A program made the translations under genes and the position numbers. Shown piece by piece: positions 1,371 through 52,214 of a DNA stretch of 53,582 nucleotides. A model generated the notes under the pieces. That model was not told where the DNA came from. It saw nothing but the letters and a program-made list of their open reading frames with translations, and ran no database searches. This DNA comes from a virus. Its lineage: Duplodnaviria; Heunggongvirae; Uroviricota; Caudoviricetes. The first letter of the stretch is position 1. Every line of letters starts with the position of its first letter. Location of the stretch: IMG/VR virus record IMGVR_UViG_2923318301_000003; one strand, given 5' to 3'.

Positions 1371-1418
1371 AATGGTGCCGATAATAGGAGTCGAACCTAC
1401 GACCTTCGCATTACGAAT
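1371..1418. repeat. 48-bp direct repeat identical to the 3' end of tRNA-Thr (distal att core copy)
   Basis: aatggtgccgataataggagtcgaacctacgaccttcgcattacgaat is identical to 52137..52184; the two copies diverge immediately afterwards. Confidence 0.85.
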
Positions 1419-4067: not shown

Positions 4068-4862
4068 TTCTCTCATATTCATTGCGTAGAGCATAAATAT
4101 CTATCTAACCACCTAAAATGCCAGAAAATCTAGTTGTATACCGGTGCGAAAATATCTCGCGTTTCATCTGCCACTGCTGCTGAATGCCCTGCCCAGCGAA
4201 ACAGAGTGTTTCCTTCCCGTCTTTTGCATTGAGGTGCTCCAGCACGCTCATTAACTTTTCGCTCCCAGGACCCAGCGCGTTATCGTCGAATAGGTTAGGG
4301 CATGCTCTGACTGAAGAAGTCCCCCAGCATTACCCCGGCTTTCTGATATCGGTGTCCGTCTTTCCATATTGCATCCAGACTCCCCGTTGCTACTGCAATG
4401 ATATCCCGACTGTCCTGTGTCGGGATGAGCAGCTTCACCGACGCGCTGTTACAGTAGTACGACTCGTTCAACGCAAAGGGTATCGTGTAAAACCGATGAT
4501 GACACTGCCGGCAATCAGCACTGACGTCAGCAAACGTGAGAAAGAACAGATAAGCCGAACGATTTAGGAAATGTTTGAAGAGACTGATATGTGGATGGTT
4601 TCAGTTTAAACGCCTTGAACCGTCATATTACCTAAGTACAATCCGCTGTGACTGGCAATCATTCAATACTTGCACTATCAAAAGTGCATCAGCCAACCGC
4701 AGCACGTCTTGCATACGACCTGTCTGCGGTTTCAATCACCTCTCACCACCAGTCCCATCAATAATAATTAAACAGCGCCTAAACAAAATAAATAACAACA
4801 AGTCAACAACCTCGACAGGATGCCGATGGGATGTAAGCGACTCATCAGAACCGTATTGATAT

Positions 4863-6434
4863 TTACTGAGAGCTCAGATCAACTTTCCAGGGCAACAGAT
4901 CGCGTACCCGGTTTGCCGGCCAGTCCTGGATATGTTCAATGACGTAACGCAGCCACTTTTCTGGCTCCACATTGTTCAGACGGCATGTGCCGATCAGCGA
5001 GTACAACACCGCCGCATGTTCACCACCGCTGTCGGAACCCGCGAACATCCAGTTTTTCCGGCCTACGGCCACTCCCCGTAAGGCGTTCTCTGCGATGTTG
5101 TTGTCGATTTCCACCCAGCCATTACTGCAGTACACGTTCAGTGCATCCCACTGTTTCAGCAGGTATGCGAACGCTTTTGCCGTATCTGAGTGACGCGACA
5201 GTGTTTTCATCTGTTGCTGTATCCAGTCATACAGTGACTGCATCAGTGGCGCGGCTCTGGCTTTTCTTGCCGCCAGACGCTGTTCTGCTGAACAGCCCCG
5301 GACCTCTGCCTCGATGGCATACAGTTCACCGATACGCTGCAGGGCTTCCGTGGTGATGTAGGTGGGCGCTCTTGCATGCACATCGTGGATTTTTCTCCGG
5401 GCATGAGCCATACACGCGGCTTCCGTTATTCTGCCGGATTCGTATAACGCCCGGTAACCACCGTAAGCATCGGCCTGAAGCACACCGCTGTAACCGGCCA
5501 GGTAATTTTGTGGATGGATACCTTTCCGGTCCGGACTGTACGCGAACCAGACCGCCGGGGGCATCTGTGAACCGGCGTTACGGTCATCACGGACGTAGAC
5601 CCACAGCCGGGCTGTCCGGGTTTTACCGCTGCCCGGCTCCTGGACCGGGACGGGGATATCATCAGCATGGACTTTACCGGGCATCAGCACATACTGGCGC
5701 AGGACGTCATACAGCGGCTCCAGCAGTTCAGCAACAGCACCTGTCCAGCGCCCCAGTGTGGCACGGCTCAGCTCCACTCCCTGACGACGGTATATTTCTG
5801 ACTGGCGGTATAACGGCAGATGGTCTGCATATTTCCCGGTGACAACATGGGCCAGAAGCCCCGCTCCGGCATAACTGCGTGCAATGGGTTTTGAAGGTAC
5901 TGGTGCCTGCACGATATGGTCGCACCGGCAACAGGCCTGTTTCGGACGTTGTGTTTCGATAACCTTAAAGGCGCTGCTGATAAGCTCCAGTTGCTCTGAC
6001 ACATCACATCCCAGAGAACTGAGTTCACCACCACAGGCAGGACAGCATTCCTCTTCCGGCCGGATAACCCGGGTTTCACGGGGAAGTGAGGCCGGTAACG
6101 GTTTACGGGCTGAAGACTGGCGCAGGGCGGATGGCAGTACCGGGTCATATTGCTCACCCAGCGTTTCCGCCATTTCTTCCTGAAGTGCGCTGATTCGCTC
6201 CTGTGCTTCCTGTATCTGCCGTTCGGTTTTTGCACGAAGTTTTTCTGAGCTTTTACCGAACTGCATACGTTGCAGTTTCGCAACCAGCGCCTTCAGCCGG
6301 TTGATTTCGGAAGCATAAGCCGCCACCCGCTGTGAGAGCAGGCGGTTGTATTCAGCCATCTGGCGGATGGTGTCCTGTTGCGTCTGCAACAGTGCCCGCA
6401 GGCGGGCGTTCTCATGAGCAAGTGAGGTGTCCAT
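4863..6434 (-). CDS. IS66-family transposase TnpC
   Basis: 523-aa ORF with N-terminal coiled-coil/leucine-zipper, a Cys-rich zinc-finger-like segment (CPACGG...CCRCD) and a DDE-type core; typical IS66 TnpC layout. Confidence 0.85.
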
Positions 6435-6453
6435 ATCCTCACTTTACAACGGG

Positions 6454-6801
6454 TTATATGCGGATTCCAGCGCGTTCCGTTCGTTTCGGGTGCTTCCAGT
6501 TGATACCTTCAAGAAGCATGGATAACTGAGCCGGAGTAAGGTGCACCTTGCCGTCACGGGTGACTGGCCAGACGAAGCGGCCCCGCTCCAGGCGTTTGGT
6601 GAAGAGGCACAGTCCGTCACTGTCAGCCCACAACACTTTTATCTGGTCACCCCGGCGTCCGCGGAAGATGAACAGGTGTCCGGAGAACGGGTCATCCTTC
6701 AGGACGTTCTGAACTTTTGATGCCAGGCCGTTAAAGCCATTTCGCATATCGGTGATACCTGCAACCAGCCAGATACGCGAACCTGCAGGGAGAGATATCA
6801 T
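6454..6801 (-). CDS. IS66-family TnpB (Orf2) accessory protein
   Basis: 115-aa ORF between orfA and tnpC with the conserved IS66 Orf2 character (WLVAGITDMRNGFNGLA...). Confidence 0.8.
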   Translation of the reverse strand: MISLPAGSRIWLVAGITDMRNGFNGLASKVQNVLKDDPFSGHLFIFRGRRGDQIKVLWADSDGLCLFTKRLERGRFVWPVTRDGKVHLTPAQLSMLLEGINWKHPKRTERAGIRI

Positions 6802-7478
6802 CAGTGGCTGCTCCCTTTTATTTCGCGGATAAGTGTCTGTAATAACGCCGGCGTCAGTTTACCTTTAAGCCTGAGAGTTCCGGCCGGCAGAACCAGCTCA
6901 CAACACAGACTGTCGGACGGTGTATTTATCTGCTCTGGTTCCTGTGCGGGGGCCGGGATTTTATTATCCGGCTCCGGCGTTAACGTCACGGGAAGCAGTG
7001 CCGGCATATTTTTTCCGGAAGGCAGCAGGCCACCTTTCCGGTATTGATGGCGCCAGTTGAAGAGCAGGTTATCGTTGATTCCGTTTTCCCGGGCGATCTG
7101 CGCCACACAGGCTCCGGGCTGCAGTGACTGCTCCACTAAGGCGATTTTAAACTCATAAGGGAAGTTGGGCCGCCGGGGACGTTTTTTTACCACGGGGGCT
7201 TCGGATATAACGGTGCTTTCAGGACGTACGACTGGTACCGTGGAAAATTGTCCGTAAAGGCAGGCATCAAGTTCCTGCTCCGACATGCCTGCGGGCAAAG
7301 GCCACGAAAGGCCAGCTCTCCGAAAGCGCACGAACATACTACAAACTGTTGATTTTGGTACACCCAGGCGACGCCCGGCCACAACCCGGGGTAAATGTTC
7401 TTCAAAGTGAAGACGTAAAGCTTCAGTGATCCAGGTCCGGTGTTTCATACGATAGTGTCCATTAAAAATGATGGACAT
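6801..7478 (-). CDS. IS66-family OrfA (Orf1)
   Basis: 225-aa ORF whose stop overlaps the tnpB start. HTH-like N-terminus. True start may be the internal Met (MKHRTW). Confidence 0.7.
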   Translation of the reverse strand: MSIIFNGHYRMKHRTWITEALRLHFEEHLPRVVAGRRLGVPKSTVCSMFVRFRRAGLSWPLPAGMSEQELDACLYGQFSTVPVVRPESTVISEAPVVKKRPRRPNFPYEFKIALVEQSLQPGACVAQIARENGINDNLLFNWRHQYRKGGLLPSGKNMPALLPVTLTPEPDNKIPAPAQEPEQINTPSDSLCCELVLPAGTLRLKGKLTPALLQTLIREIKGSSH

Positions 7479-7644
7479 TATTTTTGTAGAGCCGGAGGAA
7501 ACAGACCAGACGGTTTAAATGAGCCGGTTACGATGGGATGATGAAGAGATAAGAAAGAATAACTAGTAAAGCCCTAAAACGTCAGCGTTCAGACGCGTTT
7601 TTTACTTAACCGGTAACAAATACGTTGTATCATAGCAACATAAA

Positions 7645-11286: not shown

Positions 11287-14200
11287 TTAATTGTAGCCAT
11301 ATGACAGCCAAAGGTCGGCAAGCGTTGACGCCACAAAGCACGGGTCATACATCGTGCTGCCAGCCGCACTGCTGCCGTCAAAATCAAAGAAGCGCTTTGG
11401 TAGTCCCGGTTTCGGCCCGTACTGCGTCTCAAAAATTCCGAACAGCGATTTTGCGGCAATCATTGCTGACGGCCTGGCGGACTGAAACAGCGGCAGTAAC
11501 GCAAACGCGATAGTGTTCGCGCCACCACGTCGGCTTTCAGAGATGCAGTAATCCACCTCACTGAATCCTCCCGCGCTGTTTGACGCTGTCAGGATAAAAT
11601 TCACCAGGTCAAACTTTGGTGTCCGGTTAAGCAGCTTGCAGGCCAGCAGGTAGTTATTAGTGGCGTAAACCATGTACGGCAGGTACATGCTCTTCAGCGT
11701 GGAATCCGACGGGCCATCGAGAATAATGTTTTCCGCTTTCATGAATGTCGCTGAGTTCGTGATGAAGGTCTCCAGCGCATTGAATGCAGCAAGGTACGTC
11801 CCGCCGGTATCCAGCCCCATATAAATCGCCAGCGCCAGCACGCGCATGGCTGTCGCGTTAGAGTTGCTGTTTCCTGAGTTTGTGGCTGTCCCCACCAGAG
11901 CCACGCCACCATAGGTGTTATATGACACCATGACGGCATCCGCGAGGGATTTAATCCCCGCCTTCAGCTCGGTTTGTTTGGCTGTATCTCCGGCCTTCAC
12001 CGCCATTTTGTAGAGCCACTCATAGCACGGAATACTCAGACGCGACTGGAACTGCAACCCCCACCATCCATCAGTGAACATAATACCTGGATTAGTTATG
12101 CCGCCAAATCCCCTCATGTACGATTTAAAATTCGTATACACTGTGTTCAGCGTGCTGATGCCATACTTTTCTAACAGAAAAATCTCTGCCATGTGGCAAT
12201 AGAACTGCGTTTTCACATCGGGTCCGCCACCATAAACAGTAGCGTCAGTGCTTTTCCACCACTCAACGGATCCCCTGACGTGACAGGCGATTTTCTCCAG
12301 CATGTCCAGCCGCAGAACACCTGCATAACTGCAATCACCCATGAACCCTACCGGGCGGTTGTTAGCCTGACTTACCAGCAGTGCATTAACCTCTGAGGTG
12401 GAACTGGTGATGGTGTTGTCGCAGTCAATCCATGTCTCATGTGTCCACGTCCAGTTTTTTGGCACAGGCCAGTTCAGGAATGAATCGTCATTCAGGTCAA
12501 CGAAAAGCCATCCCGCGTCCAGCCGAGTTGTTGTGCCTGTGGGTTGCAGCGCCGTTGCCCGTATCGGGCGCGTTGGCCCATAAGCAGGGCCATCTCGGTG
12601 GATATCCCCATTAGCAAAGACCGTCGTGGCCGTAAATCGCTTGCCGGTGACTGAATCCGTCCAGTACGTCAGTGCTCTAGCGGCATCAAAGGTATATGCA
12701 CCATCATTCAGGTTCAGACGGGAATATGCACCAAATAATACTCCAGCCGGAATATCTTGCGTAGCCGTGGTCATGACCCGGATAAGCACCTTGCCATTTT
12801 TGAAAATCCGGTAGCGTACTGTGGACTGTAACGCCCCTTCAGCCAGTGTTCCGATGGTCCGGTTTCTGACGGTCAGCTCCAGCTCAGTAAAGACCGGCCC
12901 GGTATTAACCATGCGCAGTGATGCACCGAGCACCATCTTGTTACTTGAGGATCCGCCGGAGACAATCCCGGTACAGTAACAGGAATGCGCAAAACTGTGC
13001 GTCTGTCCTGCCGGGTCGGTGATACTGGTCAGCCCCAGGCTGTTCTGGCGCTGGAAAAAATACACATACCCGCCCACGGTAACGGTGAACCCGTCAGCCA
13101 CCCTCACGAGCTGCGGGAAGGACTCTGAGGCCAGGTCCTGGCGGCGACGATTGTATGCCCTGAGTTCGTAATATTTCTGCTGTCCTGATGCCAGGGTATC
13201 GGTGATGAACACAGACCCTGATGCCAGGGAGCCGTCGGCATGGTATCCGGTGTTCGATTTCAGGCGTGGATTGGGATAAACGTTATCCGCAAACTGGCAG
13301 TCAAACACGTTGCCGTCAGCGTCCATCACCTTCAGCGCATCGGAGTCCGGCACCTCGCCGGGACCAAACGACACCTTAAGCTCAACGGGATAGTTTTTAT
13401 ATTCTGCCGACAGCAGATTTTTGACGTCTGCACTTTTGCGCAGATAGTGGCCGACCAGAACCGGACGTGCCACCTTGCGCCGCCAGATGGCATACGTACC
13501 CGCTGGCAATACGGCCAGTCCTGAAGGCGCAAACCCATCACGGCTAACTGTATAGTCACCAGCAGGTAACTGAATCCTGAAAAAATCCTCAAACCCTGTC
13601 TGGGCGATCGTCGTATCATATGCCGCATATGCCGCAAAGAGGCAATCTGGCGCTATTGAGTTGATGTAATCAACAACGGTCGACGCCGTATAACCAGCAG
13701 CCGTAAGTTCAGCGATGGTAACCACGAACTGAATGGCGTTGGCAATTGCTGTCCCGGATATTGACTTCCTTGTGACGGAGTTAACTGAGCCTGCCTGCGC
13801 CGGATAAAACTTGCCTGTAATATCAAGTGCAATATAGTTTGAGCCTGCTACCGGAACACCAAACCCAGCCGGCAGGTCATAGCGAACCCGAACTACACTA
13901 CTGGTCGTTTCCAGAATGGAAACATACTTCAAATCCTGAAATCGGAACAGGCGATACGCTGACCAGAATTTACCATCAGAATACTGGGTGTTCGTCCCAG
14001 GAAAAACCAGTGACGCAACCTCAGAACCCAGCGAAGAAAAAACAAGGCGATAGAAGTTTGTGTTTACATCCGTAGTGGTTGCCAGAGACAAAAATTCTAA
14101 TACTGAATTTTCCGGTAATGGTAGTGCTGTATCATCAAGAGATTTGAATTCAATCAAATCCTGATAATCACCATTTTTTCTTCTAGTTGCTTCTCTTGAT

Positions 14201-15027
14201 ATAGACGAAGATAGGCTGTACTGGGAAATAATTGTTCTCCCGGTTGCAGTCATAACCCCGGATGTATTTACATACTCGTCAGCCAGCGAGGTATTTATAG
14301 CACTGGTTACCCAGCATTTTGAACCAGAAAGAATATTGCCAGCGTCTGCATCAGCCTGTGCCGCCTCCAGCGTGGGAAATTCGCGGATTGTCCCTGTTAT
14401 AGCAGCTGTGCCTGGCTGAGAAGCCTGTAGTATAGCCACGCCATCCTGGTTCTCGTAGGTTTTGAATGCCGCTGTTGCTCCCGGGCCTTCCGCTACACGG
14501 AAAGACTGCCCGCTGGTAGTAGCAGCAAGGCCTGCAATTGTACCGTCCGGATCGCTCGGCGTTTTATAGAACGTGAACTTATTCAGCGCATATTCAGAAG
14601 CATTGCTCGCGAACTCTTCGGCCTGAGAGGCAGAAATAGCAGCCTCTGCCGTGTTCTGTGCCACCGCGGACGCGTTACGCGCCACTTCTTCCACCATCAG
14701 CTCAAAACGGCGCAGTGCCTCCGGACGGGCATCATCCTCCGTCATGGCACCGAGAAAATCATTCAGCGTACCCGGTTGTGAGTCTTCATACACGGTGATG
14801 GTCCCGGCATGCGATGGCGGGAAGCCTTCCACCAACAGAATAACGCTGTACTGACCGTACTCAACGTCCATGCTGTAACGCCCGGCTTCATCCGGATTTT
14901 CTGAGGCCACCGTGTTCACCACCACCGTGGTGCTGTTACGTTTTGCTTTCAGCTGGATTGTGCAGTTCTGTACCGGTTTACCTGCGCCGTCTTTCAGTAC
15001 ACCTGAAATCTTTACTGCCATATTCAC
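11287..15027 (-). CDS. stf: Side tail fibre protein, chimeric (lambda Stf-like N-terminus, divergent distal region)
   Basis: N-terminal ~150 aa (MAVKISGVLKDGAGKPVQNCTIQLKA...) match lambda Stf from memory; the remaining ~1100 aa are not lambda-like; 1246 aa. Confidence 0.8.
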   Translation of the reverse strand: MNMAVKISGVLKDGAGKPVQNCTIQLKAKRNSTTVVVNTVASENPDEAGRYSMDVEYGQYSVILLVEGFPPSHAGTITVYEDSQPGTLNDFLGAMTEDDARPEALRRFELMVEEVARNASAVAQNTAEAAISASQAEEFASNASEYALNKFTFYKTPSDPDGTIAGLAATTSGQSFRVAEGPGATAAFKTYENQDGVAILQASQPGTAAITGTIREFPTLEAAQADADAGNILSGSKCWVTSAINTSLADEYVNTSGVMTATGRTIISQYSLSSSISREATRRKNGDYQDLIEFKSLDDTALPLPENSVLEFLSLATTTDVNTNFYRLVFSSLGSEVASLVFPGTNTQYSDGKFWSAYRLFRFQDLKYVSILETTSSVVRVRYDLPAGFGVPVAGSNYIALDITGKFYPAQAGSVNSVTRKSISGTAIANAIQFVVTIAELTAAGYTASTVVDYINSIAPDCLFAAYAAYDTTIAQTGFEDFFRIQLPAGDYTVSRDGFAPSGLAVLPAGTYAIWRRKVARPVLVGHYLRKSADVKNLLSAEYKNYPVELKVSFGPGEVPDSDALKVMDADGNVFDCQFADNVYPNPRLKSNTGYHADGSLASGSVFITDTLASGQQKYYELRAYNRRRQDLASESFPQLVRVADGFTVTVGGYVYFFQRQNSLGLTSITDPAGQTHSFAHSCYCTGIVSGGSSSNKMVLGASLRMVNTGPVFTELELTVRNRTIGTLAEGALQSTVRYRIFKNGKVLIRVMTTATQDIPAGVLFGAYSRLNLNDGAYTFDAARALTYWTDSVTGKRFTATTVFANGDIHRDGPAYGPTRPIRATALQPTGTTTRLDAGWLFVDLNDDSFLNWPVPKNWTWTHETWIDCDNTITSSTSEVNALLVSQANNRPVGFMGDCSYAGVLRLDMLEKIACHVRGSVEWWKSTDATVYGGGPDVKTQFYCHMAEIFLLEKYGISTLNTVYTNFKSYMRGFGGITNPGIMFTDGWWGLQFQSRLSIPCYEWLYKMAVKAGDTAKQTELKAGIKSLADAVMVSYNTYGGVALVGTATNSGNSNSNATAMRVLALAIYMGLDTGGTYLAAFNALETFITNSATFMKAENIILDGPSDSTLKSMYLPYMVYATNNYLLACKLLNRTPKFDLVNFILTASNSAGGFSEVDYCISESRRGGANTIAFALLPLFQSARPSAMIAAKSLFGIFETQYGPKPGLPKRFFDFDGSSAAGSTMYDPCFVASTLADLWLSYGYN

Positions 15028-26074: not shown

Positions 26075-26649
26075 CGCTTTATTACCATTCTCAGTTGATG
26101 CTGCAGCGCATAGCCCAGCTCTTTCGGAAGACGTTCACGCCGTATCCGTTCAATATTCTGTTTAAACGCCGTGGTCAGCGGCACCGCCATCGGGATTTTC
26201 ACCACATCAATGGGGTAACGGTTTTTCCCGGCCACACGCTGCATAACATGCCACCGGCCGTTTTTCAGTTGCTGAATAAACGCGCCGGGAATACGACGGT
26301 TTCCCACCACAAGCACGCTGCCGCCACCTTTCAGGGCTGAACGCTGCCCCTTTTTACGACGCCTGCGTCGGGACAGGACAACCCGCGCGTTACCCAGCTT
26401 GATTACGGGCAAATCCCCCCGGTTAACTTTGATTCTGGCCTGCGGATTTTTGACCGTGGCCCTTTTCAGCCTGGCCCTTTCCTTTACCAGTTTCCGGCGC
26501 ACCTTTGTCTCACGGACAACCTGTGACGCCGACTGCGATATCGCGGATGAAGCAACGCGGTTAATGGCCATTGCGGCGGCACCAGGCACCGCCGTTTTGC
26601 TGATACGGCTGAGGTTTTCAACGGCCTGCTCAAGACCTTTTATGGCCAT
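26071..26649 (-). CDS. Z: Tail completion protein Z
   Basis: 192-aa ORF matching lambda gpZ. Confidence 0.9.
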   Translation of the reverse strand: MAIKGLEQAVENLSRISKTAVPGAAAMAINRVASSAISQSASQVVRETKVRRKLVKERARLKRATVKNPQARIKVNRGDLPVIKLGNARVVLSRRRRRKKGQRSALKGGGSVLVVGNRRIPGAFIQQLKNGRWHVMQRVAGKNRYPIDVVKIPMAVPLTTAFKQNIERIRRERLPKELGYALQHQLRMVIKR

Positions 26650-26660
26650 ACATCCCCCTT

Positions 26661-27014
26661 TCAGCGGCGACGGTTAACGGCAGGCGGTACCCCCCGCCCA
26701 AGCCAGAGATGACAGCTTCCGCCATCATCCGGCGTAACCCGATCTACCCAGAAGTTTTCCTCACCGATGGTCAGCGTGTCTCCACGCCGCAGCTGCCGCA
26801 CATCATCAGTCCGGACAAACAGGGACGGGCTGGAGCCTTCAACGCGCACGCCCTGTCCGGCATAGCTGATATTTTCAGGGTCATCAAAAACACCACGTAT
26901 TACTGCGCCGGACTGCTCACCGGATGTCATGGTGGCTGACGTTCCCATGTACCCGCGTATCGTTTCATCGGCGCGGGCAATGGCAGCATCGAACAGGTTA
27001 TCGAAATCAGCCAC
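26661..27014 (-). CDS. FII: Head-tail joining protein FII
   Basis: 117-aa ORF matching lambda gpFII. Confidence 0.9.
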   Translation of the reverse strand: MADFDNLFDAAIARADETIRGYMGTSATMTSGEQSGAVIRGVFDDPENISYAGQGVRVEGSSPSLFVRTDDVRQLRRGDTLTIGEENFWVDRVTPDDGGSCHLWLGRGVPPAVNRRR

Positions 27015-27025
27015 AGCGCCTCCCG

Positions 27026-27421
27026 TTATTGCATTCTGGCCAGGCCGCGCGCTGTCATTTCAGCTGCCACACCGGCAGAGACACGGAACGCCGTTCCCGG
27101 CAGCACAAATGCCACAGCCTCATCCCGCGTGGCGTGAAGTGCATCAGTATGCAGCGTCACCAGTGCCACAACCGTGACCAGAGCAGCCGTATCAGTCACG
27201 GTATCCGTCTGCGCTGATACCACCTCATTTTCATGTCCGGTCAGCGCATTTTCCGGGCTGACAGACGTGTCCAGACCGGCTGCGTCATCCGTGTCATCAA
27301 GCTCCTCTTCCAGCTCTGCCACACGGAGCGCCAGTTCTTCTTTCGTCCCCTTCAGGCTGACATCACGGTTCAGTTGCTCACCCAGCGACCGGAGACGGGC
27401 AATCAGTTCATCTTTCGTCAT
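27026..27421 (-). CDS. FI: DNA packaging protein FI
   Basis: Lambda gpFI-like starting MTKDELIARLRSLGEQL; trimmed from the longer ORF-track frame. Confidence 0.85.
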   Translation of the reverse strand: MTKDELIARLRSLGEQLNRDVSLKGTKEELALRVAELEEELDDTDDAAGLDTSVSPENALTGHENEVVSAQTDTVTDTAALVTVVALVTLHTDALHATRDEAVAFVLPGTAFRVSAGVAAEMTARGLARMQ

Positions 27422-27462
27422 GGATTCCTCCACAGAGAGAAAATGGCCCCGAAGGGCCATGA

Positions 27463-28488
27463 TTACGCCAGTTGAACGGACACGAACTCATCAGGATCAG
27501 CCAGCAGCATCAGCGGTGCTGACTGAATCATGGTGAACTCTCGCGCCGGATCGCCGGATGTCTTCCAGTTTTTCGGATAACGGGGAGACGCATTAATACC
27601 CTCACTCAATGCATCCGCATCCTGAATACAGCCATAGGTGCGCAGACCGCGTGCATGAGTGTTACCCAGCACCATCGTGTTGTCCGGCAGGAAGTTCTTT
27701 TTGACGCCGTTTTCCACGTACTGTCCGGAATACACGACGATGGCCACATCGCCATACATCCCCTTATAGGACACCGCTTTACCCAGGTCTTTCACCGCTG
27801 TCTCCAGCTCGGAATGAGAGCCACGACGGGTATCCAGCTTCTCCCTGACGGCTTTGAAGGAACGGAACAGCGCCCAGCCTTTCGGGTCAAACACGATGAT
27901 ATTCACCACGCCGCTGGCGTTCAGCGCGTAGGCTTCGATATCGTCGGTCGGGTCATACGTGGACTTGTCACGCTTGCTCCACTCCGTGACGCCGGACTGT
28001 GTGATGTTGTTCGCCGCACTGCGGCCCATATCCACCTCAACCGGATCGAAGGCTTCACCGGTCATGGTGTATTTGCCCTTGAGCACGGCAGAAACTGCCT
28101 GCATCTCTTCGACCTGAGCAATGGCCAGCTCTTCGTCACGCATGTTCTGCATGATGATGCGACGGCGGCGGTAAGCCGGGTCCGCCAGATTCTGCGGATC
28201 TTCATCCGGCAGGCGACGCAGGGTCATCTGCGGATTCACTTCATGCTTCGGCTTGACATATCCCGGCGTAAATTCAGAGGTGGAGCCGCCACGGGAACGG
28301 ATAACCTCACCGGAAACAATCGGCGAAACGTACAGCGCCATGTTTACCAGTCCCGGAATTTGTGAGAGATAGACTTTCTCCGTGGTGAAGGGATAGCTCT
28401 CACGGAAAAAGAGACGCAGAAACAGCGGATCAAACTTAAATTTCTGCTCATTTGCCGCCAGCAGCTGGGCGGTTGTGTACATCGACAT
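27463..28488 (-). CDS. E: Major capsid protein E
   Basis: Lambda gpE-like starting MSMYTTAQLLAANEQKFKFDPLFLRLF; 341 aa. Confidence 0.95.
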   Translation of the reverse strand: MSMYTTAQLLAANEQKFKFDPLFLRLFFRESYPFTTEKVYLSQIPGLVNMALYVSPIVSGEVIRSRGGSTSEFTPGYVKPKHEVNPQMTLRRLPDEDPQNLADPAYRRRRIIMQNMRDEELAIAQVEEMQAVSAVLKGKYTMTGEAFDPVEVDMGRSAANNITQSGVTEWSKRDKSTYDPTDDIEAYALNASGVVNIIVFDPKGWALFRSFKAVREKLDTRRGSHSELETAVKDLGKAVSYKGMYGDVAIVVYSGQYVENGVKKNFLPDNTMVLGNTHARGLRTYGCIQDADALSEGINASPRYPKNWKTSGDPAREFTMIQSAPLMLLADPDEFVSVQLA

Positions 28489-28543
28489 AAAAAAATCCCG
28501 TAAAAAAAGCCGCACAGGCGGCCTTTAGTGATGAAGGGTAAAG

Positions 28544-28876
28544 TTAAACGATGCTGATTGCCGTTCCGGCAAACGCGGTCCGTTTTTTCGTCTCGTCGCT
28601 GGCAGCCTCCGGCCAGAGCACATCCTCATAACGGAACGTGCCGGACTTGTAGAACGTCAGCGTGGTGCTGGTCTGGTCAGCAGCAACCGCAAGAATGCCA
28701 ACGGCAGCACCGTCGGTGGTGCCATCCCACGCAACCAGCTTACGGGTGGAGGTGTTCAGCATCAGCGGGGTCATTGCAGGCGCTTTCGCACTCAATCCGC
28801 CGGGCGCGGTTGCGGTATGAGCCGGGTCACTGTTGCCCAGCGGCTGGTAATGGGTAAAGGTTTCTTTGCTCGTCAT
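28544..28876 (-). CDS. D: Capsid decoration protein D
   Basis: Lambda gpD-like ([12 protein letters not shown]...AISIV); 110 aa. Confidence 0.95.
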
Positions 28877-28885
28877 AAACATCCC

Positions 28886-30185
28886 TTACACTGGTGTGTT
28901 CAGCAAATCGTTAACGGCATCAGATGCCGGGTTACATGCAGCCAGCGGTGCCGGTGCCCCCTGCATCAGACGATCCAGCGCAGTGTCACTGCGCGCCTGT
29001 GCACTCTGTGGTGCTGCGGCCAGAATACGGCGGGCCGTTTCCACGGTCATACCGGGGGTTTCGGCCAGCACGCATGCCTGTTCTTCGCGTCCGTGAGCCT
29101 CCTCACAGTTGAGGATCCCCATAATGCGGCTGTTTTCTGCCGCAACCGCAGCGGTGATCTGCGCGTTCACGTCCGGCTGCGCCGCGCTGGCGTTTTCGCC
29201 CTCCGTCGCTGGCACCACGTCAGTAACGTCAGCCTGCGAAGCAGTGGCTGAAACAGTTGTTGATTGAGTCTCTTTGGTCATTCGCCCTCCTGAGAGACGG
29301 GATTTACGTGCATCCAGTGCATCACGCATAACGGTGATCGCATCGGTGCTGTTGACAAGTTCATCAGCCAGTCCGGCATCAATGGCCTCCTGACCGCTGT
29401 ACACTGCAGCCTCGGTATCCAGCACAGCCTGCACGGACAGGCCGGTATATGCCGACACCTTTTGCGCAAACATCCGGCGGGTTGCATCCATCCGGGACTG
29501 CAGTGTCTCCCGGACGTCATCCGGAAGATGGCTGTAGGGGTTGCCATCCACCTTATGGCTGCCGCTGTAAATCAGCGTGATTTCCACGCCCTGTTTCTCC
29601 AGCGCAGCACCGTAATTACTGTGAGCCATCATGACGCCGATGGAGCCTGTCCGGGCGGTCTGCGTGACCAGACGCCGGGAGGCGGCACTGGCAAGCAGCT
29701 GACCTGCGCTGCAGTTCATGTCATTGGCCAGCGCCCATACCGGCTTTATGTCACGCACACGGGCGATGATGTCAGCGCAGTCAAATGCCCCTGCCACCAT
29801 TCCGCCGGGCGTGTCCATATCCAGCAGAATGCCGTCCACCATCGGGTCGCTGGCAGCCTGTTGCAGACGGGCGATAATGCCGTTGTAACCGGTCATCCCC
29901 GAATACGGCTGCAGCGCCCGCGTCCGGCTGACCAGCGTGCCGGAAACCGGCAGCACGGCGATGCCGTTCATGACCTGATAACTGCGGGCCTGTCGTGGTC
30001 CGTCATCATCACCGGATAACGCCAGCGTCGCGGGTGCCTCTCCGGCAGTCAGGCTGTCGCCGGACACCGCATCCGTCAGGCGACTGATCCCAAGCTGGCC
30101 TGCAAGCGCACAAAAGAAAACCCGCGCATAGGCGGGTTCAAGCATCAGCGGCTCATTAAAAGCCATGCTGGCAATATGCGGGAGA

Positions 30186-30205
<20 letters not shown>
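28886..30205 (-). CDS. C: Capsid assembly protease C, with nested in-frame scaffold Nu3
   Basis: Lambda gpC-like (start near MTAELRNLPHIASMAFNEP); S49-type protease region; the Nu3 scaffold corresponds to the C-terminal part of the same frame. Confidence 0.9.
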
Positions 30206-33886
<3,681 letters not shown>

Positions 33887-33912
<26 letters not shown>

Positions 33913-34432
33913 TCAGCAACCCCGGTATCAGTTCATCCAGCGCGGCTGCTTTGTTCATGGCTTTGATGATATCCCGTTTCAGGAAATCAACATGTCGGTT
34001 TTCCAGTTCCGGAAAACGCCGCTGCACCGACAGGGGGATCCCGTCGAGAATACTGGCAATTTCACCTGCGATCCGCGACAGCACGAAAGTACAGAATGCG
34101 GTTTCCACCACTTCAGCTGAGTCTCTGGCATTCTTCAGTTCCTGTGCGTCGGCCTGCGCACGCGTAAGTCGATGGCGTTCGTACTCAATAGTCCCTGGCT
34201 GGAGATCTGCCTCGCTGGCCTGGCGCAGTTCTTCAACCTCCCGGCGCAGCTTTTCGTTCTCAATTTCAGCATCCCTTTCGGCATACCATTTTATAACGGC
34301 GGCAGAGTCATAAAGCACCTCATTACCCTTGCCACCGCCTCGCAGAACGGGCATTCCCTGTTCCTGCCAGTTCTGAATGGTACGGATACTCGCACCGAAA
34401 ATGTCAGCCAGCTGCTTTTTGTTGACTTCCAT
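33887..34432 (-). CDS. Nu1: Terminase small subunit Nu1
   Basis: 181-aa ORF (MEVNKKQLADIFGASIRTIQNWQEQGMP) matching lambda Nu1. Confidence 0.95.
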
Positions 34433-34439
34433 TGTTCAT

Positions 34440-34625
34440 TCCACGGCCAAAAACAGAGAAAGGAAACGACAAAGGCCCAAAAGTTCGTTTTCAGCACCTG
34501 TCGTTTCCTTTCTTTTCAGGGGGTATTTTAAATAGAAACATTAAGTTACGACGAAGAAGAACGGAAACGCCTTAAACCGGAAAATTTTCATAAATAGCGA
34601 AAACCCGCGAGGTCGCCGCCTCGTA
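34440..34625 (-). other. cos region (cosN 12-nt cohesive end at about 34608..34619, with the cosB side towards Nu1)
   Basis: aggtcgccgcct is the lambda cohesive-end sequence with one base change (lambda, as recalled: aggtcgccgccc); flanking sequence is lambda-like on both sides. Confidence 0.8.
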
Positions 34626-34820
34626 ACCTGTCGGATCGCCGGAAAGGACCCGCAAAATGATAATAATTATCATCTGCATGTCACAACGTGCATCTACGCC
34701 ATCAAACCACGTCAAATAATCAATTATGACGCAGGTATCATATTAATTGATCTGCATCAACTTAACGTAAAAACAACTTCAGACAATACAAATCAGCGAC
34801 ACTGAATACGGGACAACCTC

Positions 34821-35054
34821 ATGTCAACGAAGAACAGAACCCGCAGAACAACAACCCGCAACATCCGCTTTCCTAACCAAATGATTGAACAAATTAACAT
34901 CGCTCTTGATCAAAAAGGGTCCGGGAATTTCTCAGCCTGGGTCATTGAAGCCTGCCGCCGGAGACTGTGCTCAGAAAAAAGAGTTTCTCCTGAAGCAAAC
35001 AAAGAAAAGAGTGACATTACTGAATTGCTCAGAAAACAGATCAGACCAGATTGA
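34821..35054 (+). CDS. Small conserved hypothetical protein adjacent to cos
   Basis: 77-aa ORF with an ATG start in sequence recalled as lambda right-end DNA; function unknown. Confidence 0.5.
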   Translation: MSTKNRTRRTTTRNIRFPNQMIEQINIALDQKGSGNFSAWVIEACRRRLCSEKRVSPEANKEKSDITELLRKQIRPD

Positions 35055-35110
35055 AGCAATTTAGATAATCGTGCAGACTACGCCCCTCATATCACATGGA
35101 AGGTACTACA

Positions 35111-35521
35111 ATGGCTCAGGTTGCCATTTTTAAACAAATATTCGATAAAGTGCGAAATAATTTAAACTATCACTGGTTTTATTCTGAACTAAAACGTCAC
35201 AATGTCTCACATTACATTTACTATTTAGCCACAGAGAATATTCATCTTGTTCTTGAAAACGATAATACGGTTTTAATAAAAGGACAGGGTAAGGTTGTAA
35301 ATGTAAGATTTTCAAAAAATAAATGCCTTATAGAAGCCACATTAAAAGGATTCAAATCAGGAGAGTTATCATTTTACGAATACAGGAAAAATCTTGCTAC
35401 AGCAGGGGTTTTCAGATGGATTACAAATATCCACGAAAACAAAAGGTATTACTATACCTTTGATAATTCATTACTCTTTACTGAGAACATTCAGAACACT
35501 ACACAAATATTTCCGCACTAA
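35111..35521 (+). CDS. Uncharacterised prophage protein (YdfO/DUF1398-like, tentative)
   Basis: AT-rich ORF starting [38 protein letters not shown]; family assignment is from memory only. Confidence 0.6.
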
Positions 35522-36011
35522 ATCATAACGTCCGGTTTCTTCCGCGCCAGAACCGGACTCGCTGGCATGATGAAATATGTGTACCCGGTAACCCCGGTGT
35601 GCATCGTTTTTGATTATTCCCGCACACTCGCGCAGAAGGAGTTCCCCGTCGGGCTACGGTCTCTGTTAATACGGGAATACGGCGACGATACAGCGCATGA
35701 TGTGTCAGGCTTGAATACCTTTATCCTTTAAAAGGGATATCAGTTAAGTTATCCCGTGTAGGGTATAAGCCATTATCAAAGCCACTCTGTAGGAAGTGCT
35801 TTTGTAATGGCAATAAAAAGCCCCGCGAATGCGAGGCTAAATCCTGGTATTTGTAATGACTGGCTCTTATCTCAACGCAGCCCCTTACCGCGCGCAAAAT
35901 GCTCAATATCAAGCATCAGCAATGAGATGTTTAATCTGGATTCACTCCAGAAGTGAGCACCACCCTGTCTACAGAGCCAGATGTGAAGGATGATGAGTAA
36001 AATTATCGCTA

Positions 36012-36449
36012 TCATCGAAGGCATTGCGTCCTGATGTACTCCTGCAGGTAGTTAACCTGCGCGGTTATCCTGTCGATTCCACTTCGGAGACGGTAATAAT
36101 TGAGTTCAGCATCTGCTGTAAGTCTTGGGCTTTCTCCATCGCCCATGCTGCTGGCTCCGGTCTTTGACTTTGCACATGAGGCGGCGACTTGCAGCCGCTT
36201 ACGCCCAGCAGAAACATCATCACGGAGACTTTCGATAGTCGCGTTAGCATCAGCAAGCTCCTTTGTATATCTGGCGTCGAGTTCTGCTACGTCACGTTGA
36301 CGCTTCTGCATGTCAGCGATGATGGATGTGGCTTTGTCGCGCTGGGCTTTGTAGGCGATGGCGTTATCACGGTAATGATTAACAGCCCATAACAGGCAGA
36401 CGATGATGCAGATAACCAGAGCGGAGATAATCGCGGTGACTCTGCTCAT
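36012..36449 (-). CDS. Rz: Spanin inner-membrane subunit Rz
   Basis: [30 protein letters not shown] matches the lambda Rz N-terminus; downstream of the endolysin gene. Confidence 0.9.
36065..36256 (-). CDS. Rz1: Spanin outer-membrane lipoprotein Rz1, embedded in Rz in the +1 frame
   Basis: Nested ORF with lipobox LLGVSGC and a Pro-rich tail; exact start Met uncertain. Confidence 0.75.
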
Positions 36450-36922
36450 GCCTCAATCTCTCTGACCGTTCCGCCTGCTTCTTTGAATTTTGAAATCAGA
36501 CTGTCAGCCTTATGCTCGAACTGACCATAACCAGCGCCCGGCAATGAAGCCCAGATATTGCTGCAACGGTCGATTGCCTGACGAATATCACCGCGGTCAA
36601 TCATCGGTAAAGCGCCACGCTCTTTAATCTGTTGCAATGCCACAGCGTCCTGGCTTTTCGGAGAGAAGTCTTTCAGGCCAAGCTGCTTACGATAGGCATC
36701 CCACCAACGGGAAAGAAGCTGGTAACGTCCGGCTGCTGTTGATTTGAGTTTTGGGTTTAGCGTGACAAGTTTGCGAGGGTGATCGGAGTAATCAGTAAAC
36801 AGTTCACCACCGACAATAACATCATAACCGTGGTTACGTGTCGGTTGTCGCCCGTTATCCGTTCCTTCTGACCATGCAACCATATCCAGGAAAGCTTTAC
36901 GCTGGGAATTTAGTACCTGCAT
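36446..36922 (-). CDS. R: Endolysin R (lytic transglycosylase)
   Basis: 158-aa ORF with lambda R-like sequence ([11 protein letters not shown]...GYDVIVGG). Confidence 0.95.
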
Positions 36923-36925
36923 AAA

Positions 36926-37357
36926 TTACTCCTTCGAGCTACCAAACTTGTTACCGATTACTCTCATTGCAGCCCCACGAATAGCATCGACACCGATCAG
37001 CCCCACCCCACCACCAATGGCAACAGAAAGCGATTTAGGCCATCCGACATACTCAAGCGCGGATGCAAAGGTCAACGTCAGAGCGCCACATAGCAAAATC
37101 TCGAGCGTTTTTCGCTTCCAGCCACCACCACCGCCAAAATAGGCGATGCGCAAACCAGCCATAACAATCGACATAATCACTGCGCCCAGCGGCGTATCTC
37201 CACGCCACCAGCTCTGAAACAACTCCAGCCAGTCCGGCCAGGTATTTGGGTTATGAGGCATTTCGTCATCTCTCACCTCGCGATATTTGCGGGTGCTGTG
37301 TTGGAAATAAAAAGGCCACGCAACGTGGCCACCAGAATTATTTCCCCACCAGTTCAC
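36926..37357 (-). CDS. Putative holin (not lambda S type)
   Basis: Immediately upstream of the endolysin gene; three hydrophobic helices. Start is probably internal (MPHNPNTW), because the full ORF overlaps the methyltransferase 3' end. Confidence 0.6.
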   Translation of the reverse strand: MNWWGNNSGGHVAWPFYFQHSTRKYREVRDDEMPHNPNTWPDWLELFQSWWRGDTPLGAVIMSIVMAGLRIAYFGGGGGWKRKTLEILLCGALTLTFASALEYVGWPKSLSVAIGGGVGLIGVDAIRGAAMRVIGNKFGSSKE

Positions 37358-38390
37358 TTACCTCTTTCACCGTCTGATTAAACCGCTCTGACTCAAGTTC
37401 AACACCTAACGCCCGACGCCCCAGCGCCATTGCCGCTTTTATTGTGGAACCGGATCCCATAAAGAAATCAGCAACCAGATCGCCTTGTCGACTACTGGCA
37501 CTGATTATTTGCCGGAGCATATCCGCAGGCTTCTCACACGGATGTTTACCCGGGTAGAACTGAACGGGTTTATGCGTCCAGACGTCGGTATAAGGCACGG
37601 AAACTGATACGGAGAAATAGCGCCGGAGAGTTTTAAACTCATCCAGCAATTCAGAATATTTGCGATTCAGTGAATCATAAGATGCCACCAGCTGGTGGTG
37701 TGGTTGTTCCAGTTGTTGTTCCTGAAATTTCTCTGCCGCTATACGGGAAAACAGTGCCTGCAACTTCCGGTAGTCAGCCTCATTCGGCAACTGCCACTGA
37801 CTGGCACCAAACCAGTGGGAAACCATATTTTTCTTACCTGTGGCTTCAGCAATTTGTTTTGCCGTTATACCCAGTTCGGCACGAGCATCCCTGAAATACG
37901 ATATCAGCGGTGCCATTATGTGCTGTTTGAGTTCCCTTTCTTTTGCCGCATAGCCGTCACTTTTGCCGCGATATGGCCCCTGGTAATGTTCAGCAAACAG
38001 AACGCGCTCTGTGGCAGGAAAATATGCGCGCAGACTTTCTTTATTACACCCATTCCAACGTCCGGACGGCTTCGCCCAGATGATATGGTTAAGCACGTTG
38101 AAACGTTCACGCATCATGATCTCAATATCAGATGCCAGGCGATGCCCACAGAACAGGTAAAGGCTTCCGGCTGGTTTCAGTACCCGCCAGAACTGGGCCA
38201 GACAGTGGTCCAGCCACTTCAGGTAATCTTCGTCCCCTTTCCACTGATTGTCCCAGCCGTTGGGCTTCACTTTGAAGTACGGCGGATCGGTAACAATCAG
38301 ATCAATGGAGTTATCAGGCAGGGACTGAATAAAATGCAGGCAATCAGCGTTGATTAAATCAACACTGTTTATTTTTACAGTATTTTTCAT
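37338..38390 (-). CDS. DNA methyltransferase (DPPY-motif N6-adenine/N4-cytosine class), orphan
   Basis: VTDPPYF near the N-terminus and the AdoMet motif DFFMGSGST near the C-terminus; no adjacent restriction gene. Confidence 0.85.
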   Translation of the reverse strand: MKNTVKINSVDLINADCLHFIQSLPDNSIDLIVTDPPYFKVKPNGWDNQWKGDEDYLKWLDHCLAQFWRVLKPAGSLYLFCGHRLASDIEIMMRERFNVLNHIIWAKPSGRWNGCNKESLRAYFPATERVLFAEHYQGPYRGKSDGYAAKERELKQHIMAPLISYFRDARAELGITAKQIAEATGKKNMVSHWFGASQWQLPNEADYRKLQALFSRIAAEKFQEQQLEQPHHQLVASYDSLNRKYSELLDEFKTLRRYFSVSVSVPYTDVWTHKPVQFYPGKHPCEKPADMLRQIISASSRQGDLVADFFMGSGSTIKAAMALGRRALGVELESERFNQTVKEVSELVGK

Positions 38391-39008: not shown

Positions 39009-39935
39009 ATGAAAGTTAGAAGCATAGGATTTACAATAAATAACAATAACAAAAATATTAATACCGTTGACGTAATGAATGCTTTTATCAACGCATCAAA
39101 CAGAGAACACAGTCGCACAGACTATACTCGTAAAATTCTCATTTCGGATGTGAATGATTTCTATTATGGATTAGTTGTCACATTCAGAAACCAAAAAAAG
39201 AACTGTAAGTCGCAATTTGTTGATGGTAAATTCCAGCTTAAAATTGAAGATCTTCAAGGAAGTGACAAACTTGCTAATTTCAACTTTTTCTTAATTAAAA
39301 AATCTAATCTTTCTGGTCTCTATATGTATCACCACGGGTCATGCAGTCTGAACACTCTCTTTTCTCATTTAGAAACAATAAGTAATGAATTTATCAGAAA
39401 TCAAAATAAAGAAGAAATAAAAAAACTTGGTGATAAACCAAAACAAAAAGAAGTAACTGCAATAAATAAAAAATACAAAGAAAGACTGACTTTCAGCCTT
39501 ATGACAAATAAAAACAACATTCAGAGTGTTTTATGTCAATTCAAAGAGATTAAAAGCACAAGCTTTAAATTTAATTATATAGATTTTAAAGGTGGACCAA
39601 TGACTGCGCTTGAACAATTTGTTAACACTACCACAATAGATATGAATTTTAATTCTAGCGACAGAACAAAAGTGCAACAACTATCTCAGAATCTTTCAAA
39701 TATTTATAATTCTATGAGTGGAGTTGCTAAAGCACAGGTTATTGCAGTAAACCATGCAGGAATAGAAAAAACCATTGATTTTATGAACTGCCCTGTTTTT
39801 TTTGAAACATACGATTTCGATATAATTGCCGATAAAGTCAATGGATTGACAAACGATAATTATACAACAAACCCTGTTTTTGATATGATAAAAGAAGAAA
39901 TGCTGAACGGGACGAATAAAAATGCCTTTATATGA
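39009..39935 (+). CDS. Hypothetical soluble protein, first gene of the AT-rich two-gene moron operon
   Basis: 308-aa ORF, strongly AT-rich, opposite strand to the flanking phage genes; 14-nt overlap with the next gene; no recognisable catalytic motif. Confidence 0.75.
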   Translation: MKVRSIGFTINNNNKNINTVDVMNAFINASNREHSRTDYTRKILISDVNDFYYGLVVTFRNQKKNCKSQFVDGKFQLKIEDLQGSDKLANFNFFLIKKSNLSGLYMYHHGSCSLNTLFSHLETISNEFIRNQNKEEIKKLGDKPKQKEVTAINKKYKERLTFSLMTNKNNIQSVLCQFKEIKSTSFKFNYIDFKGGPMTALEQFVNTTTIDMNFNSSDRTKVQQLSQNLSNIYNSMSGVAKAQVIAVNHAGIEKTIDFMNCPVFFETYDFDIIADKVNGLTNDNYTTNPVFDMIKEEMLNGTNKNAFI

Positions 39936-40470
39936 ATGGCTAATAAATAAAAGATTGAGGTATCAGTACCTTACACTGCTTGCATCCTCGATCCTGGCAT
40001 TGCTTGCACTTTACCTATTGTACAGAAACACACCTAAAGTAAGTGTTAACTTTTTTGATTTTTATCATAAAAACTTACGAGGCTATCTCTTCTCCGGTTT
40101 TATTTCCGTGGGCTCATTTTTATTGAGCCTGCATACCTTTGTCATAATAAATTTACGCGATAAGGTTTTTGCAACTCAGGAATATAAGGAAATTTATAGC
40201 ATTGCCACTGGTATACCTATTGACAAAATCAATGATAGTGTACTTTATAAACCTTTAGACAATTTATCCTCATTTATTAATACATCAATATTATGTTCTA
40301 TCACAACAGCAATTGCACAATTCACTATTGGACTTTCAACTAATTTATATGCATGCTTATTTTGCGTATGGCTTGCAATACTAACGGTATTTCTTTTATT
40401 ACATTGCCTCATCATAATCAGACAAAATATTAAAATTTTATTAAAGCAACAGAGAAAAAAAGGGGGGTAA
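39922..40470 (+). CDS. Small integral membrane protein (four predicted TM helices), second gene of the moron operon
   Basis: 182-aa ORF with four hydrophobic stretches of ~19-25 aa (LTLLASSILALLALYLLY; LFSGFISVGSFLLSLHTFVIINL; SILCSITTAIAQFTIGL; LYACLFCVWLAILTVFLLLHCLIII) and a basic C-terminus. Confidence 0.75.
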   Translation: MPLYEWLINKRLRYQYLTLLASSILALLALYLLYRNTPKVSVNFFDFYHKNLRGYLFSGFISVGSFLLSLHTFVIINLRDKVFATQEYKEIYSIATGIPIDKINDSVLYKPLDNLSSFINTSILCSITTAIAQFTIGLSTNLYACLFCVWLAILTVFLLLHCLIIIRQNIKILLKQQRKKGG

Positions 40471-50734: not shown

Positions 50735-51084
50735 TGGAGCCATACAGCCTCACACTCGATGAGGCCTGTCATTTTCTCAAGATATCCAGACCGACTGCCA
50801 TTAACTGGATACGCACAGGGCGTCTTCAGGCAACACGCAAAGATCCCACTAAGAATAAATCTCCTTACCTCACAACACGACAAGCCTGCATTGCGGCTCT
50901 TCAGTCTCCGCTGCATACTGTCCAGGTGAGCGCGGGTGATGGCATAACAGAGGAAAGAAAATGTCACTCTTCCGCAGAGGTGAAATATGGTACGCCAGTT
51001 TCACATTGCCGAACGGTAAAAGATTTAAACAGTCTCTTGGAACAAAGGACAAAAGGCAGGCGACAGAACTCCATGACAAGCTAA
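50734..51084 (+). CDS. Excisionase-like HTH protein (3' boundary uncertain; overlaps the integrase start)
   Basis: The N-terminus [30 protein letters not shown] is a typical excisionase/AlpA-type HTH; the open frame runs ~120 nt into the integrase gene. Confidence 0.55.
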
Positions 51085-52124
51085 AGGCTGAAGCATGGCG
51101 GGTCAGCAAACTTGGTGAAATACCTGATATAACGTTCGAGGAAGCGTGTGTCAGGTGGCTTGAAGAGAAAGCACATAAAAAATCACTGGACGATGACAAA
51201 AGCCGGATCGGATTCTGGCTTCAACATTTCGCAGGAATGCAACTAAGAGACATTACTGAATCAAAAATTTATTCAGCAATGCAGAAAATGACGAACCGGC
51301 GTCATGAGGAAAACTGGAAACTCAGGGCAGAAGCATGCAGAAAAAAAGGGAAACCTGTTCCAGAATACACGCCAAAACCAGCGTCCGTTGCAACGAAGGC
51401 TACGCATCTTTCATTTATAAAGGCCCTACTAAGAGCCGCAGAGCGTGAATGGAAAATGCTGGATAAGGCACCAATTATTAAAGTGCCCCAACCAAAGAAT
51501 AAACGGATCCGCTGGCTGGAGCCCCATGAAGCACAAAGGCTGATTGATGAATGTCCGGAGCCATTAAAGTCTGTTGTTGAATTTGCACTGGCAACAGGCC
51601 TAAGACGCTCGAACATCATCAACCTTGAATGGCAACAAATAGATATGCAGCGCCGGGTGGCATGGATAAACCCGGAAGAGAGTAAATCAAACCGCGCAAT
51701 TGGCGTTGCGCTGAATGATACTGCATGTCGCGTATTGAAAAAACAAATCGGGAATCATCACCGTTGGGTATTTGTGTACAAGGAAAGCTGTACCAAACCA
51801 GACGGAACGAAAGCGCCAACAGTCAGGAAGATGCGGTATGACGCAAACACAGCCTGGAAAGCAGCGCTGAGACGGGCTGGTATTGATGATTTCAGATTTC
51901 ACGACTTGAGACACACCTGGGCAAGTTGGCTGGTTCAAGCCGGAGTCCCGTTGTCAGTGTTACAGGAAATGGGAGGCTGGGAGTCTATCGAAATGGTTCG
52001 TCGATATGCTCACCTTGCACCTAATCACCTTACCGAACACGCACGGCAAATAGACTCGATCCTGAACCCATCGGTCCCAAATTTGTCCCAGTCAAAAAAT
52101 AAGGAAGGTACTAATGATGTGTAA
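50961..52124 (+). CDS. Prophage tyrosine integrase
   Basis: 387-aa ORF; C-terminal [39 protein letters not shown] catalytic region; ends 13 nt from the att core and tRNA. Confidence 0.9.
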
Positions 52125-52136
52125 CTTATTGATTTT

Positions 52137-52184
52137 AATGGTGCCGATAATAGGAGTCGAACCTACGACCTTCGCATTACGAAT
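52137..52184. repeat. att core within the intact tRNA-Thr (proximal copy of the 48-bp repeat)
   Basis: Identical to 1371..1418. Confidence 0.85.
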
Positions 52185-52214
52185 GCGCTGCTCTACCAAC
52201 TGAGCTATATCGGC
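52139..52214 (-). tRNA. thrW: tRNA-Thr (anticodon CGU)
   Basis: 76-nt cloverleaf on the - strand: GCCGATATAGCTCAGTTGGTAGAGCAGCGCATTCGTAATGCGAAGGTCGTAGGTTCGACTCCTATTATCGGCACCA; adjacent to proA as in E. coli. Confidence 0.9.

Follow-up and report, generated by a model that had tools for sequence, protein, structure and literature searches.

A rare G-to-A variant at base pair 1 of a lambda-type cos in a thrW prophage of Escherichia coli

When the cohesive end of a lambda-type cos departs from that of lambda by a single base, is the change a natural variant of a working packaging site or a mutation in a decaying prophage? The question was raised by an earlier note on a viral stretch of 53,582 nucleotides (IMG/VR record IMGVR_UViG_2923318301_000003), the whole of which is referred to here as the window. 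The note had placed the cohesive end one base off lambda, within lambda-like cosB and Nu1 flanks, and had quoted the lambda 12-mer for comparison. Alignment to the lambda GenBank record J02459 bears out both the single difference and the lambda-like flanks, and the 12-mer quoted for lambda proved correct, the reference base being G and not A. The choice between natural variant and decay mutation could be narrowed, although the two are not fully separated: a derived allele found in a single clone favours drift or early decay.

The cohesive-end 12-mer lies at window 34610-34621, where the plus strand carries AGGTCGCCGCCT (direct read, aggtcgccgcct) and the minus-strand reading, its reverse complement, is 5'-AGGCGGCGACCT. 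The J02459 record starts with GGGCGGCGACCT, from which the window 12-mer differs by one base, G to A (G1A). The substituted base is lambda bp 1, located at window 34621 (T on the plus strand, A on the lambda l-strand) and directly 3' of the predicted top-strand nick. This 12-mer is the sole match to that of lambda within the window at up to one mismatch, and the 3-4 matches with two mismatches are at chance level (4.3 expected). A gap-free alignment of 601 bp around cos gave 96.5% identity to lambda and DE3 and 99.0% identity to phage PhiR42_1, and the homologous 12 bp of DE3 are annotated as 'cos site'. Because of this gap-free alignment and the DE3 annotation, the window 12-mer is regarded as the homologue of lambda cos and not as a chance 12-mer; judged by its sequence, it is the genuine cos of a Lambdavirus prophage at thrW.

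The probability that the A reflects a sequencing or assembly artefact is negligible. The same base recurs in seven complete E. coli assemblies of independent origin, which represent six countries, and in a single metagenome contig, and the change is a substitution, not a homopolymer-length error. Sequencing error was ruled out as the source of the A by the agreement of these eight independent sequences.

The element that carries this cos is a Lambdavirus prophage inserted at tRNA-Thr (thrW), the tRNA being the only element returned by an Rfam search (Table 1). The unit delimited by the att repeats spans 50,766 bp in the window, about 104.7% of lambda, and 47.8 kb in the prophage of strain 1283, which carries G at bp 1. 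A length of 50.8 kb is just inside the lambda packaging range, near its upper limit. The RefSeq annotation of the closest genome supplied 51 CDS for mapping onto the window, and each of them has an open frame there. ISCro1, whose insertion brings the window unit to this length, is shared by the window and strain SCEC020023, which has an additional IS903B at window 2270-2278 and a unit of about 51.8 kb. A prophage without attR was also considered, as the tail-fibre module abuts an integrase fragment with no repeat there; it was ruled out because of the perfect 48-bp repeat at 1371-1418 and the lambda-sized 47.8-kb unit of strain 1283.

Table 1. Features of the cos region, the terminase genes and the prophage, in window coordinates
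Feature	Position	Strand	Remarks
cosQ, GGGTCCT (lambda bp -30 to -24)	34645..34651	-	sequence and spacing as in lambda
16-bp cosN	34608..34623		direct read; both flanking CG dinucleotides present
cosN cohesive end (lambda bp 1-12)	34610..34621	-	11/12 bases as in lambda; G1A at 34621
Predicted nicks	top between 34622 and 34621; bottom between 34610 and 34609		by homology
cosB R3, critical TerS binding site (lambda bp 50-65)	34557..34572	-	as in lambda by alignment
IHF site I1	~34514-34556		between R3 and R2; three bases off lambda (bp 73, 87, 102)
cosB R2, 16-bp repeat AGAAAGGAAACGACAG (lambda bp 109-124)	34498..34513	-	inverted; as in lambda
cosB R1, accessory TerS site (lambda bp 151-166)	34457..34472	-	first base C to T at 34472
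Nu1 (TerS)	33887..34432	-	181 aa, intact; L132I the sole difference from lambda
A (TerL)	31987..33912	-	641 aa, intact; T466I the sole difference from lambda gpA
W	31784-31990	-	identical to lambda
tRNA-Thr thrW	52139-52214	-	
Integrase	51006-52124		beside the thrW att core
att core, 48-bp direct repeat	52137..52184		overlaps the tRNA-Thr 3' end; next to the integrase
Distal 48-bp att repeat	1371..1418		perfect copy
ISCro1 (IS66 family; tnpA, tnpB, transposase)	~4834..7530		b region; absent from strain 1283

Several further genes were observed in and around the b region. The side tail fibre ORF is intact in the window (1,246 aa; 11287-15027, minus strand) and is followed by a gene for a 343-aa glycine-rich protein (10197-11228, minus strand); in near-identical RefSeq genomes PGAP gives only a 445-bp pseudogene at this place ('N-terminal domain, missing C-terminus'), leaving 3.5 kb unannotated. 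The integrase remnant abutting the tail-fibre module is C-terminal and 77 aa long (9959-10192, plus strand). The b-region segment 1419-4830 holds fragments of UmuC (DUF4113), DinI and an SOS-response peptidase, together with a ParA gene. Within the phage collection, no isolated phage with the same b region was found; Lambdavirus PDP110P1 has the glycine-rich gene only in common with it. Directly beyond the distal tRNA-Thr repeat lies a second tyrosine integrase (1-1209, minus strand), and in the closest genome a type I R-M hsdM gene comes next; this second integrase and hsdM are a tandem island at thrW.

Genes related to defence were also encountered. A DUF262 protein of 649 aa (7645-9594, plus strand) gave a full-length match of 1,439 bits to the PADLOC type IV methyl-directed restriction enzyme and, by this similarity, is a predicted prophage-borne defence gene. 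The interval between Q and the methyltransferase holds two genes of low GC content (308 and 182 aa; 39009-40470, plus strand), both oriented opposite to the late operon. PADLOC gave no match for these two genes, the glycine-rich protein or an ECs1072-family protein. In group-2 relatives the equivalent slot holds a Kiwa (KwaA/KwaB) system, and the slot may be a defence hotspot with unclassified cargo.

The cos region was mapped onto lambda with lambda bp n equal to window 34622-n for n up to 137 and to 34623-n beyond. Relative to J02459, one base pair is deleted at lambda bp 138 (window 34484-34485), in the spacer between R2 and R1 of cosB, and this deletion is common to DE3 and all prophages of the thrW lineage. 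Lambda bp 2-72 are identical in the window, and R3 (lambda coordinates from PMC9026076) and its distance from cosN are therefore unchanged. Among the three I1 changes, those at bp 73 and bp 102 also occur in phage PhiR42_1, and the one at bp 87 is private to the thrW lineage; the R1 change is also present in the G-allele sister prophage. The cosQ positions are invariant across 118 IMG/VR cos sites. As cosN is defined over 16 bp with dyad symmetry at 10 of them (PMC9026076), G1A raises the symmetry to 12/16.

The sequence features that mark a lambda-like cos are thus found at this locus: the cohesive end with its flanking CG dinucleotides, cosQ, a complex cosB and an adjacent terminase of lambda specificity. 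The canonical left half GGGCGG (bp 1-6), which lambda-like phages conserve, is absent, as the window reads AGGCGG. Since the enzyme and its binding sites are those of lambda, lambda genetics should apply directly to this site.

To establish how often bp 1 departs from G, a census was made with 41-mers centred on this base, in which each 28-base megablast seed had to span bp 1. Across 5,426 complete E. coli genomes, G was found at 7,820 places in 4,382 genomes and A at seven places in seven genomes; C or T was found at none. Individual E. coli genomes hold up to eight lambda-type cos sites. The corresponding census of phage records for G and A returned G at 48 places in 46 records and no A. An exact scan for a non-G bp 1 in lambda context gave no site in IMG/VR and none in 185,579 species-representative genomes; in metagenomes it gave one contig, which carries the same thrW prophage.

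Samples in which all 12 bases were free to vary reveal where the cohesive end does change. In IMG/VR, 117 of 120 sites are canonical, and the remaining three differ at bp 6, at bp 12 or across bp 7-12. All 17 species-representative sites, which take in the divergent cos of Citrobacter, Superficieibacter and Pluralibacter, read GGGCG at bp 1-5 and vary at bp 6-12 only. No variation at bp 1-5 was thus seen in these samples outside the thrW lineage. Per-site diversity over 118 IMG/VR sites outlines a conserved island from about -30 to +34, including bp 1, with flanks that vary by 10-35%. Lambda-identical cos regions were also observed, over the stretch read, in assemblies of Raphidiopsis brookii D9, Aeromicrobium sp. 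and Alicyclobacillus fastidiosus ('plasmid unnamed3'); in these non-enteric assemblies they are most likely lambda DNA contamination.

The seven E. coli carriers of the A allele come from China (two), Ghana, Brazil, Tanzania, the USA and Burkina Faso. In all of them the cos-flanking and packaging genes have identical protein accessions, and the five carriers whose long flanks were compared all hold the prophage at proA-thrW. Over 8.5 kb of the window (28244-36796), three of four A-allele genomes compared show no difference, and 184/2aE, the remaining one, has four clustered base differences, all in Nu1. Over the same interval, just two bases separate the window from the G-allele strain 1283, one of them cosN bp 1, and the 601-bp cos region of that strain is that of the window except for bp 1. 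In 48 kb of host flank, SCEC020023, Iso00270 and 1283 are 5-11 SNPs apart from one another; given so few differences, the hosts are considered one clone in which the prophage was inherited vertically. As every other lambda-type cos has G, A is taken as the derived state. Sequence comparison thus indicates that G1A arose once, by a G:C to A:T transition in a prophage carried vertically by one E. coli clone, and the best reading is a recent transition retained through vertical inheritance. The rarity of the A allele may in part reflect its recency rather than a fitness cost.

A compensatory change in the terminase was looked for between A and G carriers, and none was found. TerS WP_000453576.1 and TerL WP_001027290.1 are the same in strain 1283 and in six of the seven A carriers; the seventh, 184/2aE, has TerL WP_001027290.1 and a converted Nu1. 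With terminase proteins identical in A-allele and G-allele copies, nothing compensates for G1A. A derived allele in a single lineage, with no other variation seen in nature at its position, is more readily explained by drift or early decay than by circulation of the variant among active phages.

Other changes have accumulated in the same lineage. In Iso00270, a satellite-like element of about 11 kb (26400-37514 in the coordinates of that sequence) is inserted in the major capsid gene E, and the same is seen in four more A-allele genomes (184/2aE, ES10, PRO_A-2576-6M-A_ESBL and Ec-U1), so that E is split in five of the seven carriers. In ES10, ISKox3 lies upstream of the holin gene. The satellite and IS insertions suggest that selection for lytic function has been relaxed in the lineage. 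Strain 10, SCEC020023 and the window have an intact E and no satellite, from which it follows that the cosN mutation predates the satellite insertion.

The satellite encodes an integrase, a primase, an SSB, its own major capsid and decoration proteins and a Nu1-like terS, and it carries a lambda-like cos of its own, with the cohesive end GGGCGTCAGGCG and lambda-type cosQ and R sites. Among the four satellites whose terS was compared, the gene is annotated as intact in 184/2aE and has an internal stop in Iso00270, ES10 and PRO_A-2576-6M-A_ESBL. At the four clustered SNPs of the 184/2aE prophage Nu1 (window 34181, 34200, 34216 and 34223), the sequence is that of the satellite terS, a pattern that indicates gene conversion between the small-terminase genes of satellite and helper.

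What G1A does to packaging depends on the two nicks. Wild-type half-sites read 5'-CG↓GGGC at the top and 5'-CG↓AGGT at the bottom (arrows, nicks), and with G1A the top one becomes 5'-CG↓AGGC, so that the top-strand nick is now followed by A, which TerL already accepts after the bottom-strand nick. The two halves of cosN differ in their sensitivity, since left-half mutations are severe and right-half changes largely silent (Feiss et al. 2015, PMC4669245). The left-half change G2C lowers yield about 10-fold, and the right-half change C11G is silent (Xu & Feiss 1991, as summarised in PMC4669245). This asymmetry has been explained by the anchoring of the bottom-strand TerL, and not of the top-strand TerL, by cosB-bound TerS (PMC4669245). 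A full-text literature search for cosN with G2C or G1A returned only PMC4669245; Xu & Feiss 1991 and Vahanian et al. 2017 lay outside this search.

Considering this asymmetry, we hypothesize that the G:C to A:T transition at cosN bp 1, directly 3' of the terminase top-strand nick, would act on the cut made by the TerL that is unanchored by cosB-bound TerS, where mutations would be costly. Top-strand nicking would become less efficient or less faithful and phage yield would be lowered, with cos function not wholly lost. The allele would have been kept because the host copies the prophage, with no virion transmission and with selection on cos relaxed; G1A would then represent an early decay or drift mutation. 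A partial loss of top-strand nicking and yield is, in our estimate, the most likely effect of G1A, with a probability somewhat above even. A partial reduction is favoured because bp 1 adjoins the nick within the sensitive half and is invariant in nature, yet G2C is non-lethal and A is tolerated at the symmetric position. The window prophage itself looks intact, and in this copy selection on cos may not be relaxed.

A possible, rather unlikely alternative is that G1A is a neutral variant of a functional cos, with CG↓A nicked as well as CG↓G, in an active phage with the ends 5'-AGGCGGCGACCT and 5'-AGGTCGCCGCCT. Both strands are changed, so the ends stay perfectly complementary; in a hairpin model of the 12-bp duplex the energy shifts from -17.2 to -16.7 kcal/mol, a change of just 0.5 kcal/mol, and on this modelled value cyclisation should be unaffected. 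The open phage genes (the 51 mapped CDS) and the perfect att repeats of the window are likewise in keeping with an active phage. The wild-type bottom half-site of lambda is already CG↓AGG and G1A brings cosN to the more symmetric state (PMC9026076); bp 1 is not among the rotationally symmetric positions thought to be recognised, and the TerL endonuclease is described as not highly sequence specific (PMC9026076). Against neutrality, no other non-G bp 1 was seen among some 7,800 E. coli cos sites, phage records, IMG/VR and species representatives, in which bp 6-12 do vary. The allele is further limited to one clonal host lineage and one locus with no sign of horizontal spread, and it falls in the functionally sensitive left half of cosN (PMC4669245).

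The opposite extreme, a lesion that inactivates cos by blocking or misplacing the top-strand nick and leaves a grounded, cryptic prophage despite its open frames, is improbable. It would agree with the complete invariance of bp 1 elsewhere, with a change in the sensitive left half-site, right beside the scissile bond (PMC4669245), and with a lineage that is gathering IS and satellite insertions. Still, G2C, the only left-half mutation quantified in the accessible literature, reduces yield without being lethal, the A at the matching place in the other half-site is accepted by TerL, and the packaging and structural genes are all intact in the window.

An adaptive role of G1A is very unlikely. 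Under such a role, the change would lessen cutting by co-resident or superinfecting lambda-like terminases or by satellites, or lessen joining with lambdoid ends. What speaks for it is circumstantial, namely the up to eight lambda-type cos sites per E. coli genome and the presence, in most A-allele genomes, of a satellite with a lambda-like cos and terS. The allele, however, has a single origin and has not spread past one clone, TerL and TerS show no accompanying change, and the allele is older than the satellite insertion; mismatches between cohesive ends are in any case tolerated (PMC4669245).

Compared with known systems, the window cos shares the architecture and spacing of lambda cos (cosQ, the 12-bp end, R3, I1, R2 and R1, with the Nu1 start about 190 bp from bp 1); no base is changed in R3, R2 or cosQ, and TerS and TerL are each one amino acid off. 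It differs from lambda by the A at bp 1, by a few lineage SNPs (I1 and the first R1 base) and by the bp 138 deletion. N15, phiD326 and Gifsy-1 (PMC4669245) likewise show natural base changes within their 12-nt lambda-type cohesive ends; these fall at bp 7-12, the tolerant right half by cosB, to which natural cosN variation has been described as limited (Feiss et al. 2015, PMC4669245), whereas G1A falls in the left half, next to the top-strand nick. The engineered G2C and C11G (Xu & Feiss 1991 via PMC4669245), which define cosN asymmetry, are also single-bp changes near the nicks; unlike them, G1A is a spontaneous allele in wild genomes. A further counterpart is the thrW prophage of strain 1283 (NZ_CP023371.1) and its relatives, the same prophage at the same site in the same host clone, with identical terminase proteins; it differs in having G at bp 1, no ISCro1 and a different immunity region.

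Together, our results indicate that the G1A cos is a rare SNP in a well-understood lambda-type site and represents no new mechanism or system. Should G1A be fully functional, so that a wild lambda-type phage packages DNA with 5'-AGGCGGCGACCT and 5'-AGGTCGCCGCCT ends, an outcome we consider conceivable and on the unlikely side, natural cosN variation would have its first example in the left half and right beside a nick. The unanchored TerL would then not read the base 3' of the top-strand nick, and a cosN with its symmetry raised to 12/16 would work no less well than that of the wild type. The practical value of the variant is small; it offers a natural test of how terminase recognises the base 3' of the top-strand nick, for which strain 1283, with the same prophage and G at bp 1, is a natural isogenic control. 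The allele illustrates an early mutation in a vertically inherited prophage and provides a clean marker for one E. coli clone.
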